A stretch of 64,000 bases of DNA from Candidatus Gottesmanbacteria bacterium (GTDB lineage Bacteria; Patescibacteriota; Microgenomatia; JAMCYU01), in the NCBI GenBank assembly GCA_043801155.1, contig JAZDMI010000011.1, positions 27,439 through 91,438 on the forward strand, in the 5' to 3' direction. The first letter of the stretch is position 1; the number at the start of each line of letters is the position of its first letter. Shown here one piece after another: positions 34,110-42,482 of this stretch. The notes beneath the pieces were generated by a model. It did not search any database. It had not been told where the DNA came from and worked only from the letters and a program-made list of their open reading frames with translations. The translations under genes and the position numbers were made by a program.

Positions 34110-35078
34110 ATGATAAAATTAGCATGCATTATGTTCAATTATTCCTTAATATTTACTTTGAAGAATGAAGAAAAGAATATTTATAAACTATTGGAATCAA
34201 TTGTAAAACAGACTGTTAAGCCTGATGAGATTATAATTTGTGACGCTGGGTCAACGGATAATACATTAGAAATCTTAGAAAATTTTAAAAAGAGCAATCC
34301 CAATTTAATGATATCTATCATTAAGGAAAAAGGAGTAAATAGATCCAAAGGCAGAAATGAAGCTATTAAACAAGCAAAAGGAGTCGTTATTATAGTAACT
34401 GACGCGGGCTGCGTTCCTGATGAGAATTGGATTAAAAATATTATTGAACCGTTTAATGATATAAACATTGATGTTGTGGCTGGCTATTACAAACCAATCA
34501 CAAAAACAATTTTTCAAAAATGTTTAGCTTGCTATACTTCCGTTATGGAAGATAAAGTCGATCCAAACAATTTTCTTCCTTCTTCTCGTTCAATTGCCTT
34601 TAAAAAAACAGCATGGGAAAAAGTTGGCGGTTATCCGGAGAAGCTTGATTATTGTGAGGATCTTGTTTTTGCAGTAAATCTGAAAAAAGCAGGATTAAAA
34701 TTCCAATTTAAACAAGACGCAATCGTATATTGGCCACAAAAAGAGAATATAATCCAAGCCTTTTGGCAGTTTTTCCACTATGCCTACGGAGACGGTCAGG
34801 CTCTTTATATGCCCCATGTTAAAAATATTACCTTTGTTTATTTTCGTTATCTAATTGGAATAATGATACTATATAATATATTTATATATGATATATCAAT
34901 ATATCATATATTATTTTGGGGAGGATTACTCTTATATATTACTTGGTCAATTATCAAAAACTATCGATATATAAAAAACTTGGCTGCTTTTTGTTATCTT
35001 CCTATTCTTCAATTTACCGCTGATTTAGCTGTAATGTTAGGATTTTTTTACGGAATTACGAGGAGAAAATCATTATGA
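34110..35078 (+). CDS. Family-2 glycosyltransferase with C-terminal TM helices
   Basis: IIICDAGSTDNT and a D-x-D-like VTDAG. The start may be the internal ATG at 34131. Confidence 0.7.
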   Translation: MIKLACIMFNYSLIFTLKNEEKNIYKLLESIVKQTVKPDEIIICDAGSTDNTLEILENFKKSNPNLMISIIKEKGVNRSKGRNEAIKQAKGVVIIVTDAGCVPDENWIKNIIEPFNDINIDVVAGYYKPITKTIFQKCLACYTSVMEDKVDPNNFLPSSRSIAFKKTAWEKVGGYPEKLDYCEDLVFAVNLKKAGLKFQFKQDAIVYWPQKENIIQAFWQFFHYAYGDGQALYMPHVKNITFVYFRYLIGIMILYNIFIYDISIYHILFWGGLLLYITWSIIKNYRYIKNLAAFCYLPILQFTADLAVMLGFFYGITRRKSL

Positions 35079-35848
35079 TGGATTTTAATGAAAGGGTAAT
35101 CCCCGGACAAAGTATGAATTTTTTATACCAGCAAGCATTGTCGCGTTATCAATATGCTAAAAATTTAATTAAGATTGGATCAAAAATTGTCGATCTTGGA
35201 TGTGGAGTAGGGTATGGCAGCGCATTGTTATCCGATATCGCTCCGGTTATTGGTATTGATATAAGCAACGAAGCAATTGCTTATGCAAAAAAGAATTATG
35301 GTAAAAATGTTGTTTTTGAAACAGGGGATATTAATAAATTAAAATTTACTAATAATGAAGTTGATGTTGTCTGCGCATTTGAGGTTATCGAGCATATTGA
35401 AAAGCCTGATAAGCTATTATATGAAGTTAAAAGAATTCTAAATAATAATGGGCAATTTTTTTTATCAACGCCCAATCGAGAAATTATGTCGGAAGATGGT
35501 CAACTTACAAGTCCATACCACAAAATAGAGTATGATTTTCAAGAGATTCAAGCATTATTAAGACAATTTTTCAGAAATGTCGAAGTCCTAGGCCAAAGAA
35601 AATCAAAAAAAGCTGATAATGCCTATAAATCATTTATAAAATCACAAACCATAAGACAAAATATTGTTAACTTTGATAAATTTTATTTACGAAAACTATT
35701 TACTCAACTATTTAAAGAAAAAATGTGGCAAAAATTGGGTAATTTATTTGGTAGGCAACACCAGGAACAACTGACAAGTTTAGATTTTCCGATTACAAAA
35801 AACGACAGCATAAATTGCGATTATTTTTTTATAATATGTCAGAAATAA
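35075..35848 (+). CDS. Class I SAM-dependent methyltransferase
   Basis: Motif I VDLGCGVGYGS and an acidic-loop D-x-V-x-x-F-E-V-I-E-H. Confidence 0.75.
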   Translation: MMDFNERVIPGQSMNFLYQQALSRYQYAKNLIKIGSKIVDLGCGVGYGSALLSDIAPVIGIDISNEAIAYAKKNYGKNVVFETGDINKLKFTNNEVDVVCAFEVIEHIEKPDKLLYEVKRILNNNGQFFLSTPNREIMSEDGQLTSPYHKIEYDFQEIQALLRQFFRNVEVLGQRKSKKADNAYKSFIKSQTIRQNIVNFDKFYLRKLFTQLFKEKMWQKLGNLFGRQHQEQLTSLDFPITKNDSINCDYFFIICQK

Positions 35849-40183: not shown

Positions 40184-41281
40184 ATGAAAAAGATATTATA
40201 TATTTCATTTATTTTAATATCGATAATAAGCTTTCTTTTTTCATTAACGAAAATAATTAATTCGATTGCACCGGATTTTAGTGTTTTTTATTACGGAGCA
40301 AAAGATTTAATATTGGGAAGTAATCCATATCAAAATGATAAGTTATTTACCGGAATTAATTATCCACCACTAACCTTACTATTTTATATGCCATTAACAT
40401 TATTATCATACAACTTCGCGCAATTTATTTGGTTAATGATTACTTTAATATGCTTACTAGGATCAATTTTTTTATCACTCAAAATTTTAAAAATTAAGAT
40501 TACTATAAAATATTTTTTATTAGTTTTATCACTATCGGTACTAGCGTTCCCGATAAAATTTACCTTTGGTATGGGTCAAAGTAATATCCTTGCTTTGTTT
40601 TTACTGCTTCTGTCTTTTTATAATTGGAAAAAAGATAAAAATATTATTGGCGGAATAATGTTAGGAATTTGTATATCGATAAAACCAATTTTAGGTTTTT
40701 TTCTGCTTTTCTTTGTAATTTATAAAGCTAAAAAATTAATTATTATTTCTTTACTAACATTGTCATTTTTTATTATGATATCGATTGTTTATCGGGGTAT
40801 AGACTTATATCAATATTATATATGGCAAATTATCCCGCCCCTGTTAAATCCTGGAGGCCGTGAGGTTTATTATAATCAAGGTCTGATGGCTTTTATCAGT
40901 AGGCATGTATTAATTCCCACCATACGAATTAGCCTTAATTTTTTTGCTTCACTATTACTTATAACAATTTCATTAATAGGAATATATAAAAATAATAAGA
41001 GTAATATAGCCTTTGCAATTTTTTTCCCAATGGTTCTTTTGTTAGATACTCTTTCTTGGCAACATCATTTTGTTTGGCTTCTTTTTCCTTTTATTATTAT
41101 TTATAACTATATTATAAAGATGCAAAATAATTCTTTAAAATATATTTTGTTATTTGCCTATATACTGGTGGCGATAAACTTTAAACAACCTACTTTTTTT
41201 TGGTCACATGTCTTTCTGGGGACTATAATAATATGGATACTGAATATTTATTTATTGAAGAGAAGCGATGATCCTACTTAA
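40184..41281 (+). CDS. Polytopic membrane protein, GT-C-like (DUF2029/GT87-type)
   Basis: 365 aa, 9-10 TM helices. Confidence 0.45.
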   Translation: MKKILYISFILISIISFLFSLTKIINSIAPDFSVFYYGAKDLILGSNPYQNDKLFTGINYPPLTLLFYMPLTLLSYNFAQFIWLMITLICLLGSIFLSLKILKIKITIKYFLLVLSLSVLAFPIKFTFGMGQSNILALFLLLLSFYNWKKDKNIIGGIMLGICISIKPILGFFLLFFVIYKAKKLIIISLLTLSFFIMISIVYRGIDLYQYYIWQIIPPLLNPGGREVYYNQGLMAFISRHVLIPTIRISLNFFASLLLITISLIGIYKNNKSNIAFAIFFPMVLLLDTLSWQHHFVWLLFPFIIIYNYIIKMQNNSLKYILLFAYILVAINFKQPTFFWSHVFLGTIIIWILNIYLLKRSDDPT

Positions 41282-42482
41282 GATATTCTATATATTAATC
41301 CTAATAATTTTTCCATTTGGCCAATTAACTAAACTACCTCTGGGAATAAGTGAAATTAATATTTATTTCCAAGACATTATTTTAGGTATTTTAGTCATTA
41401 GTTGGATAATTTGGCATCTTATTACAAGACGACCTCTGTTGAAAACACCCATAACTAAACCAATTATTCTATTTATCATTGTTGCAATTTTCTCTTTAAT
41501 TACTAATTTTCTACGGTTTTCTCAAAAGGAAATGATCATTGCGAGTTTATATCTGGTAAGGTGGGGTATATTTACAAGTATTTATTTTATTACTTTTGAG
41601 ATGGTCAATTTTCATTTTATTGATCAGTCAAAAATTAAATGGATGCTAATATACGTTGGTACCACGACTGCTATTTTTGGTCTTGGACAATATATTTTAT
41701 ACCCCAATTTACGTAATCTTTTTTATCTCGGGTGGGATCCTCATTATTTCCGTGTTTTTGGAACTTTTTTTGATCCCGGATTCATCGGTGTAATTATTAT
41801 TTTAACGATAATATTGCTAATGGATTGTATAACTAAGATCACTATCCATGAACAATTTTATCGAAATGCTTGCTTCTTGCTACTTACTATTTGCTACGTT
41901 GTTCTAGCTTTAACCTATTCGCGAAGTTGCTATCTGGCTTTTATTACAGGGATGGGAGTTATTTCATGGTTTAAAAGAAATCCAAAAATTATCTTGACAG
42001 CAATGCTGATAATTATAACCACAATTATTGTTTTACCAAGACCAGCAGGCAGCGAAGGTGTGAAACTTGAAAGAGGAGAAACAATTTGGGGACGTTTACA
42101 AAACTGGAAACAATCAATAATCATCTTTAAAAACAATCCCTTGTTAGGCGTGGGTTTTAATACTTATCGGTATGTGCAAAAAAACTATGGTTATATCAAT
42201 CAAGAAGATTGGCAAACATCTCATTCCGGAGCCGGAGCAGATTCTAGTCTCCTTTTCATTCTAGCCACTACCGGTATATGTGGTTTGATATCTTATTTAT
42301 TACTTATATATTATATATTAATATATCATATACGAAATGTCACGGTAATTAGCAGTATCGTTGTTGTCCTAGTCAGTTCGTGGTTTGCGAATAGCCTATT
42401 TTATCCATGGATAATGTTATGGATGTGGATATTAATAGGAATTCAAGTCAAAAGTACCGTATCTAGAAGTATTCGTAAGTAA
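41268..42482 (+). CDS. O-antigen ligase/polymerase-like (Wzy_C) membrane protein
   Basis: 404 aa polytopic protein with a central loop YSRSCYLAFITG...R typical of the Wzy_C family. Confidence 0.55.
   Translation: MILLKIFYILILIIFPFGQLTKLPLGISEINIYFQDIILGILVISWIIWHLITRRPLLKTPITKPIILFIIVAIFSLITNFLRFSQKEMIIASLYLVRWGIFTSIYFITFEMVNFHFIDQSKIKWMLIYVGTTTAIFGLGQYILYPNLRNLFYLGWDPHYFRVFGTFFDPGFIGVIIILTIILLMDCITKITIHEQFYRNACFLLLTICYVVLALTYSRSCYLAFITGMGVISWFKRNPKIILTAMLIIITTIIVLPRPAGSEGVKLERGETIWGRLQNWKQSIIIFKNNPLLGVGFNTYRYVQKNYGYINQEDWQTSHSGAGADSSLLFILATTGICGLISYLLLIYYILIYHIRNVTVISSIVVVLVSSWFANSLFYPWIMLWMWILIGIQVKSTVSRSIRK

Follow-up and report, generated by a model that had tools for sequence, protein, structure and literature searches.

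A predicted surface-glycan locus of Candidatus Gottesmanbacteria with a conserved GT2-WaaL-like gene pair and a variable glycosyltransferase cassette

Introduction

What does a bacterium that is regarded as lacking lipopolysaccharide (LPS) build with a run of glycosyltransferases that ends in a protein of the O-antigen ligase type? The question is raised by Candidatus Gottesmanbacteria bacterium (GTDB lineage Bacteria; Patescibacteriota; Microgenomatia; JAMCYU01), in which a stretch of 64,000 nucleotides (NCBI GenBank assembly GCA_043801155.1, contig JAZDMI010000011.1, positions 27,439 to 91,438 of the forward strand), hereafter the window, carries eight genes at positions 34110-42482 of the + strand, which we call O1 to O8. 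Its host belongs to the candidate phyla radiation (CPR), whose members live attached to other microbes and are regarded as lacking LPS, and we know of almost nothing on their surface chemistry. A literature search for this locus and for Wzy_C proteins of Patescibacteria returned no paper.

A first-pass annotation made from the letters of the window had read the eight co-directional genes as a surface-glycosylation locus, and both its open reading frames (ORFs) and its family assignments hold up: three family 2 glycosyltransferases (GT2), one S-adenosylmethionine (SAM)-dependent methyltransferase, three membrane transferases of the GT-C type and one Wzy_C protein. NCBI holds proteins from Candidatus Gottesmanbacteria that are 100% identical to O5, O6 and O8, with O6 annotated as 'glycosyltransferase family 39 protein'; annotation of these genes already exists in generic form, and every enzyme is from a known family.

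A conserved gene pair beside a variable cassette

Judged by gene content and protein identity, the comparison of related loci shows a conserved core of O5 and O8 at a fixed chromosomal site, joined by a glycosyltransferase cassette that varies among lineages. The comparison covered 80 loci from genomes, centred on O6 relatives, 80 from metagenomes, centred on O8 relatives, and three long contigs; their mechanically called ORFs were labelled by phmmer against the window proteins. Because relatedness to O6 or O8 decided which loci entered the sample, the frequencies given here are not unbiased. A scan of genome contigs with the single O6 sequence found no relatives, whereas an alignment query did retrieve them. 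O8 homologs were present in 91 loci and formed 79 clusters at 90% identity. After de-replication, an O5-type GT2 lay upstream of O8 in 48 of 52 loci (adjacent or overlapping in 28), and a gene for an immunoglobulin (Ig)-like protein stood convergent downstream of O8 in 55 of the 57 loci with room for it, directly adjacent in 51. The conserved order reads ParB, signal peptidase (- strand), lipase (-), the cassette, O5, O8, Ig-like gene (-), LysM (-), PolX, LemA, M48, MurT and GatD. The stretch from the lipase or signal peptidase gene to O8 varies from 1.15 kb to about 9 kb, and in the shortest examples (L109 and L110, 1.15 kb) O5 alone stands ahead of O8. In one database protein (P0127, 662 aa), the two are fused; its GT2 part matches O5 along the entire length with 52% identity, and its Wzy_C part is 46% identical to O8.

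The pair is also conserved in sequence. Median identity to the window proteins was 49% for O5 and 42% for O8, values that stand beside those of the housekeeping neighbours PolX (50%), LemA (42%) and M48 (57%), while the cassette proteins O2, O3, O4, O6 and O7 had medians of 28-33%. In the window, the inserted genes O6 and O7 separate O5 from O8, and O2-O3-O4, likewise inserted, separate O1 from O5. In L001, the closest of the relatives found (tblastn identity 49-59%), the order is O1-O5-O6-O7-O8 followed by the Ig-like gene. The first-pass annotation had presented the eight genes together as one locus, but they are not one conserved unit and the GT-C enzymes are not its centre: O2-O3-O4 are missing from L001, GT-C genes are missing from 19 of 32 comparable loci, and what is conserved is instead O5 and O8 with their Ig-like neighbour.

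Profile hidden Markov models (HMMs) run against those 32 O8-selected cassettes found an O4- or O6-family GT-C in the other 13, and GT87, the family of O7, in none. GT-C genes are therefore optional among the loci, which makes the window an unusually GT-C-rich variant. As far as gene content tells, O1 is a frequent yet optional cassette gene, O2 is part of an accessory module O2-O3-O4, and O7 is a rare accessory gene. Of the 28 loci that extend 8 kb or more upstream, 19 have O3-like GT2s, and methyltransferases are common in related cassettes, O2 and O3 themselves being missing from L001. Among the 74 cassette ORFs that match no window protein were 21 GT4 and 6 PMT_2 proteins and several methyltransferases, together with 3 Polysacc_synt proteins of the Wzx type, 3 radical SAM/B12 proteins and 2 sugar epimerases or dehydratases.

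Many of the metagenome-assembled genomes that supplied these loci (L003-L082) are titled 'uncultured Gammaproteobacteria' or 'uncultured Pseudomonadales' and carry clear Microgenomates-type loci; the titles look like taxonomic mislabels.

Organization of the eight genes

The eight ORFs occupy exactly the coordinates that the first-pass annotation had given them. Neighbouring ORFs either overlap by 4-34 nt or are spaced by 1 nt, so that O1-O8 most likely form a single, translationally coupled operon. Promoter and terminator scans were uninformative (57 promoter-like sites against 53.6 expected). The GC content of the locus is 28-33%, against a window average of about 35-38%. Window proteins were compared with Pfam family models (cut-offs of 23.3 bits for PF00535, 26.1 for PMT_2 [PF13231] and 25 for GT87), and transmembrane (TM) segments were located by a crude hydropathy scan, which makes O4, O6, O7 and O8 polytopic and gives no TM segment for O2, O3 and O5. 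An NCBIfam equivalog cut-off was reached by none of O1-O8, so that clear orthology with a characterised pathway is lacking; the first-pass annotation had named clear orthology to characterised exopolysaccharide genes as the result that would overturn it, and no such match appeared.

The Wzy_C protein O8

O8 (41268-42482, + strand) matches Wzy_C with 63 bits. Its profile gave no match among PDB sequences, and its fold was established through structure prediction: an AlphaFold2 (AF2) model built from a 36-sequence alignment reached a predicted local distance difference test (pLDDT) score of 87 and a predicted template modelling score (pTM) of 0.90, and its best fold match in the PDB was WaaL, in a searched copy that may or may not hold a Wzy structure. 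R98, D157, H159, R162, R219, R269, R276, R301 and D325 are invariant in the family and H319 is nearly so. Most of the conserved Arg, His and Asp residues lie in the loop 256-327 between TM helices, a segment assigned to the outer face by analogy with WaaL. O8 thus combines what characterises a Wzy_C/WaaL-type protein, namely the domain, the WaaL-like multi-TM fold, and conserved Arg and His residues in a loop assigned to the outside.

Proteins of this kind may be ligases or repeat-unit polymerases. Three observations favour a ligase, none of them proof: O8 is conserved while the content of the cassette varies, the minimal loci hold only O5 and O8, and the O8 model fits WaaL best. The conservation pattern in particular agrees better with a ligase that tolerates different glycans and has a conserved acceptor than with a polymerase specific for one repeat unit. 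The closest ligases are WaaL (PDB 7TPG and 7TPJ), PglL, PilO/TfpO and WsaB, although O8 has no detectable sequence similarity to any solved structure. It differs from WaaL-type ligases in being paired with a dedicated GT2, O5, which in the one case of P0127 is part of the same protein.

The GT2 enzymes and the methyltransferase

O5 (37976-38758, +), the conserved partner of O8, is a soluble GT-A protein of the GT2 family, and like O1 and O3 it scores above the PF00535 cut-off (Glycos_transf_2: 62 bits for O5, 87 for O1 and 62 for O3). It has more than 3500 homologs, the best 120 of which are 51-64% identical, and D93-A-D95-E96 is invariant in the family alignment. The AF2 model (pLDDT 92) consists of a GT-A domain and a C-terminal three-helix bundle. 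SunS/ThuS came first among its PDB fold matches (E 8e-14), followed by WrtF, TarS, TarP and SpsA, and neither GtrB nor DPMS was among the top 50.

O1 (34110-35078, +) also matches Glyco_tranf_2_3 and Glyco_trans_2_3, and hydropathy places a hydrophobic C-terminal membrane region at residues 240-310. The alignment shows D45, D98-A-G and E183-D184 to be invariant in the family, D98-A-G with E183-D184 being a variant of DxD. Generic GT2 structures were the best PDB matches of the O1 profile; DPMS, ArnC and GtrB followed with 41, 31 and 29 bits, weaker than the generic GT2s and confined to the N-terminal 105-140 residues. O3 (35815-36603, +) is a second soluble GT2, and its start is most likely the ATG at 35836 (MSEIKLSIIIV...). 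O2 (35075-35848, +) is a class I SAM-dependent methyltransferase with scores of 79 and 76 bits for Methyltransf_31 and Methyltransf_11, and a range of 67-79 bits when Methyltransf_25 is included.

The GT-C membrane transferases

The first-pass annotation had proposed that the GT-C enzymes be assigned to classes by homology, and the check places O4 and O6 near ArnT/PMT and O7 in PimE-like GT87. O6 (38743-40182, +; GT39/GT83-like) is polytopic, scores 45 bits against the PMT_2 cut-off, and keeps its acidic loop-1 residues. In a 36-sequence alignment of its family, D26-E27 directly after TM1 are invariant together with R75, K166 and R301, and K52 is nearly invariant. As its profile matches ArnT (5ezm, E 4e-4), O6 is a GT-C of the ArnT/PMT superfamily with an intact loop-1 acidic motif. 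O4 (36582-37979, +) stays just under the PMT_2 cut-off with 25.3 bits, and its profile had no match in the PDB; its family profile aligns with that of O6 over 451 columns (hhalign probability 99.3%, E 2.9e-20), which makes O4 a distant paralog of O6 despite the sub-threshold score. However, the loop-1 motif reads FSPEVGHN in the window and FLGDEGRD in most relatives, so that only the Glu is kept (P-E, not D-E), and the loss of the first acidic residue makes the activity of O4 uncertain. Single-sequence PDB searches with O4, O6 and O8 gave nothing meaningful.

O7 (40184-41281, +) is a GT87 GT-C (72 bits) and matches the 'Mannosyltransferase' chain of PDB 9dm5 (E 6.7e-8), an entry mentioned in the PimE paper, according to which D58 (the catalytic base), K195, W319, H321 and H322 matter for the activity of PimE (PMC12041525). 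Six homologs of O7 all keep D31, K167, W292 and H294, and five of them also have H295. By the offset of the pairwise alignment, K167 and W292-x-H294-H295 correspond to K195, W319, H321 and H322 of PimE; D31 corresponds to D58 by motif position only, the pairwise alignment beginning at residue 58. O7 is no ortholog of PimE, for it scores 58.5 bits on the NCBIfam mannosyltransferase equivalog PRK13375, far below the 413-bit cut-off. The first-pass annotation had expected these enzymes to use polyprenyl-phosphate sugars, and in keeping with this the acidic loop-1 residue is retained in O6 (D26-E27) and O7 (D31).

The flanking genes and a candidate acceptor

A secreted lipase and an Ig-domain protein had been named as the flanks of the locus, and family matches, a signal-like N-terminus and a TM segment agree with this. 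The lipase-like alpha/beta hydrolase lies on the - strand, divergent from the operon, at 32199-34097 as listed and at 32199-34055 with its most likely start, the GTG at 34055. It has weak matches to Palm_thioest, PGAP1, LCAT and DUF676, a GYSLGG nucleophile elbow and a hydrophobic N-terminus resembling a signal peptide. Homologs occupy the same position in many related loci, and in gene order it appears as the conserved left border of the variable cassette.

The Ig-like gene (- strand, convergent with O8) is listed at 42502-43251, but this 5' end overlaps tRNA-Thr (43219-43291), so that translation probably begins at an ATG that gives 42502-43218. The protein is bitopic, with one N-terminal TM segment and two Ig-like domains (Glucodextran_B 74 bits, Big_6 50 bits), and it has a weak match to the NCBIfam model CPR_pilus_PamR ('pilus system RbmA-like protein'; 37 bits against a 300-bit cut-off). 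The family conserves a juxtamembrane motif, D-x-(I/L)-P-P-x-P-P, which is a domain-boundary feature and is followed by EATNSA. A search for acceptor motifs in the neighbouring secreted protein, as the first-pass annotation had suggested, did not bear fruit: the Bacteroidetes-type O-glycosylation sequon D-(S/T)-x was considered for the Ig-like linker and set aside, as only 20 of 59 homologs carry it. The Ig-like protein is a candidate partner or acceptor of O8.

Discussion

We favour, at roughly an even chance, the explanation that this is a surface-glycan locus with a conserved core and a variable cassette, in which O8 ligates a lipid-linked glycan to an acceptor in the envelope and the GT-C enzymes decorate on the outside. 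From what is known of the families, O3, O5 and possibly O1, with the methyltransferase O2, would build and modify a polyprenyl-diphosphate-linked oligosaccharide at the inner membrane face. A flippase encoded elsewhere would move the lipid-linked glycan outward, and O8 would then transfer it en bloc to a conserved envelope acceptor, in the manner of WaaL or an O-oligosaccharyltransferase. Because the CPR host is regarded as being without LPS, lipid A-core cannot be this acceptor; it may instead be a lipid, a wall polymer or a protein, for example a pilin, an S-layer protein or the Ig-like neighbour. The first-pass annotation had suggested a surface protein or a teichoic-acid-like polymer as the target, possibly with a methylated sugar. 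The three GT-Cs would use polyprenyl-monophosphate sugars to add side branches on the outer side of the membrane, and the donor of O7 would probably be a polyprenyl-phospho-hexose such as mannose, as for PimE. A broader form of the explanation is possible and somewhat doubtful: the locus would be a hypervariable glycan locus at a fixed site throughout Microgenomates, in which a conserved and sometimes fused pair of GT2 and WaaL-like protein ligates lineage-specific glycans to a conserved acceptor, possibly the Ig-like protein.

Several observations weigh against the explanation that we favour. The 64-kb window contains no priming phosphoglycosyltransferase of the Bac_transf or WecA type, MraY being its only PF00953 protein, and neither the locus nor the window has a Wzx, ABC or GtrA-type flippase or a recognisable polyprenyl-phosphate sugar synthase. 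O1 and O5 were considered for the last role and rejected, O1 for the weakness of its DPMS, ArnC and GtrB matches and their restriction to the N terminus, and O5 for its lack of a TM segment and of GtrB or DPMS among its top 50 folds. Primer, flippase and sugar synthase would therefore be encoded elsewhere, or would be replaced by a non-canonical activity of O1 or O5. Furthermore, the closest folds to O5 are the peptide S-glycosyltransferases SunS and ThuS, which makes a different acceptor logic possible; O4, to judge from its loop-1 motif, may be inactive or altered; and the single O5-O8 fusion, P0127, could be an artefact of assembly or gene calling. The Ig-like gene is convergent with O8 and not co-transcribed with it, and since the whole neighbourhood is syntenic, the adjacency of the Ig-like and lipase genes may reflect inherited gene order and not function.

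A Wzx/Wzy-dependent capsule or exopolysaccharide, for which the GT2s would make the repeat unit, O8 would polymerise it as Wzy and the GT-Cs would decorate the product, is unlikely in our estimate. It would draw on the facts that the Wzy_C domain spans both polymerases and ligases, that related cassettes, much as capsule loci do, contain many GT2 and GT4 genes, and that 3 of their 74 otherwise unlabelled ORFs are Wzx-type Polysacc_synt proteins; however, the window holds no chain-length regulator (Wzz or polysaccharide copolymerase), tyrosine kinase, export component, Wzx or priming transferase. The minimal loci L109 and L110, with nothing but O5 and O8, also speak against it, as does the fold match of O8 to WaaL, to be read with the reservation on Wzy structures made above. 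Wzy polymerases normally co-vary with their repeat unit, whereas O8 is as conserved as its housekeeping neighbours while the glycosyltransferase content changes. A second rival is a membrane glycolipid or lipoglycan pathway. In a pathway like that of phosphatidylinositol mannosides (PIM) and lipoarabinomannan, or like that of lipoteichoic acid, O1 would glycosylate a lipid and the GT-Cs would extend it outside, O8 being minor or separate. O7 keeps the catalytic constellation of PimE, O1 is anchored in the membrane and belongs to the Glyco_tranf_2_3/Glyco_transf_21 type of GT2, among which there are lipid glycosyltransferases, and an inositol-monophosphatase-family gene lies 1.3 kb downstream. 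That gene, however, is part of an insert specific to the lineage, and its scores as HisN and as SuhB are about equal and below both cut-offs; no PIM pathway genes, phosphatidylinositol synthase or polyprenyl-phospho-mannose synthase were found in the window; and with GT87 in none of the 32 cassettes and any GT-C missing from 19, such a pathway cannot be the conserved function of the site. We consider it quite unlikely.

We give a similarly low probability to the idea that there is no single pathway, O5-O8 being a conserved housekeeping step of the envelope (e.g., for a wall-linked polymer) and the other six genes being independent, horizontally shuffled glycosyltransferases that share an insertion-tolerant site. 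The housekeeping-level conservation of O5 and O8 beside a patchy cassette agrees with it, as do the low GC content of the locus and the gain and loss of accessory modules between close relatives. What argues against it is that the eight genes overlap or abut on one strand, which points to co-transcription and translational coupling, that O6 and O7 sit between O5 and O8 without separating them transcriptionally, and that all cassette gene families seen are glycan-related.

The surface-glycan explanation that we favour has counterparts in known systems. In the slg clusters for S-layer O-glycosylation of Geobacillus stearothermophilus and Paenibacillus alvei, LPS-free cells use GT2-type transferases and a capping methyltransferase, and the Wzy_C-domain protein WsaB moves a lipid-linked glycan onto a surface protein. 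The locus described here shares with them the GT2s, the methyltransferase, the Wzy_C-domain transferase and a host regarded as lacking LPS, but the slg clusters also encode WsaP as priming transferase, an ABC exporter and nucleotide-sugar enzymes, none of which is present here, and they contain no GT-C; no S-layer gene was identified in the 64-kb window. The GT-C families of O4, O6 and O7 are those that use polyprenyl-monophosphate sugars outside the membrane, as in GtrA/GtrB/GtrC, ArnC/ArnT, CsbB/YfhO and Ppm1/PMT; unlike these systems, the locus places three different GT-Cs in one operon with a WaaL-like protein, without a recognisable GtrB/DPMS/ArnC-like synthase or GtrA-like flippase in locus or window. 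PimE is a mycobacterial polyprenyl-phospho-mannose-dependent alpha-1,2-mannosyltransferase of GT87 whose catalytic residues find their counterparts in O7, but here the host is a CPR bacterium and the PIM pathway genes are lacking from the window. Variable glycan cassettes at fixed sites are known from the O-antigen rfb locus between galF and gnd and from the pneumococcal cps locus between dexB and aliA. The likeness lies in conserved flanking genes around a gene content that differs greatly between related genomes; here, in Microgenomates, the Wzy_C gene is the most conserved element and not the most variable one. What sets the locus apart is the dedicated GT2-WaaL-like pair, conserved across Microgenomates and anchoring a variable cassette, together with three GT-Cs, one of them GT87, in a single operon.

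Taken alone, the window holds a well-formed, generically annotated glycosylation operon of known enzyme families, which is of moderate interest and not startling. A single conserved site whose glycosyltransferases change with the lineage would give the diversity of surface glycans in Microgenomates a concrete marker in the genome, possibly of use in strain typing and in predicting phage or host specificity, and the conserved ligase-like enzyme with its dedicated GT2 partner and adjoining candidate acceptor makes the locus more tractable. If the Microgenomates-wide version holds, these ultrasmall episymbiotic CPR bacteria would possess a functional counterpart of the diversity seen in O-antigens or capsules, on which their attachment to hosts and their recognition by phages could depend.

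Other features of the window

The rest of the window is an ordinary CPR chromosome. It contains the dcw cluster from MurB to FtsZ (438-17232) and genes for IleRS, RodA, ParB, signal peptidase and PurB; after the locus come tRNAs, LysM, PolX, LemA, M48 peptidase, MurT/GatD, GatCAB, a GGDEF protein, DnaE and ATP synthase.

An insert of about 2.6 kb (43219-45873), bounded by tRNAs, separates the Ig-like and LysM genes. It runs from tRNA-Thr through an ORF (43421-43792), the gene for the inositol-monophosphatase/HisN-like protein (43802-44653) and a soluble GT-A gene (44875-45750, with a 21-bit PpgS match) to tRNA-Gly, and it is richer in GC and differs in amino-acid composition. None of the fetched loci has homologs of these three genes between its Ig-like and LysM genes, and often just a few hundred bases separate that pair. 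Horizontal acquisition of a module for compatible solutes or sugar phosphates may account for the insert. Its GT-A protein was tried as a polyprenyl-phosphate sugar synthase and rejected, the PpgS match being the only one. ORFs 31939-32193 and 43421-43792 were likewise tried as GtrA-like flippases; neither has a Pfam match, and 43421-43792 is without a TM segment. Beside tRNA-Gly and tRNA-Asp, at 45872-45904 and 46790-46822, stands a near-perfect palindrome of 33 nt (CACTGTAAAATTnAnCGATTTTACAGTG), possibly a shared terminator or processing hairpin.

The locus also hosts copy A of a GC-rich palindromic mini-element, as the first-pass annotation had reported; it lies at 38193-38238 (+), in frame within O5. 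Relative to the L001 ortholog it inserts 12 residues (RGPARHASQGDAGG) just before the GEWVLFLDADE (DxD) strand, and in the AF2 model of O5 the loop is disordered (residues 76-85, pLDDT <50). The hairpin of copy A has a folding energy of -25.4 kcal/mol (z -1.8), whereas copy B, at 52398-52444 in frame within the GatD-like gene 51840-52652, does not stand out (z -0.3). The mini-element DNA pattern and its peptide were found in 0 of 165 fetched loci. Proteins of other organisms carry a near-identical peptide, GPARN-ASQSDAGG, at the same O5 position (P0253, P0288 and P0332, with a related one in P0307); most O5 orthologs are without it, and others have Arg/Gly/Pro-rich inserts in a different loop. 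The mini-element resembles Rickettsia palindromic elements.

Further upstream, the last 14 codons of FtsZ (17191-17232, the conserved C-terminal peptide and the stop) recur at 18277-18318 and 19498-19539. The first copy ends a 35-aa ORF (18211-18318), and the second is degenerate and has no clear ORF. Both could be remnants of duplications of the ftsZ 3' end, or small mimics of the FtsZ tail.

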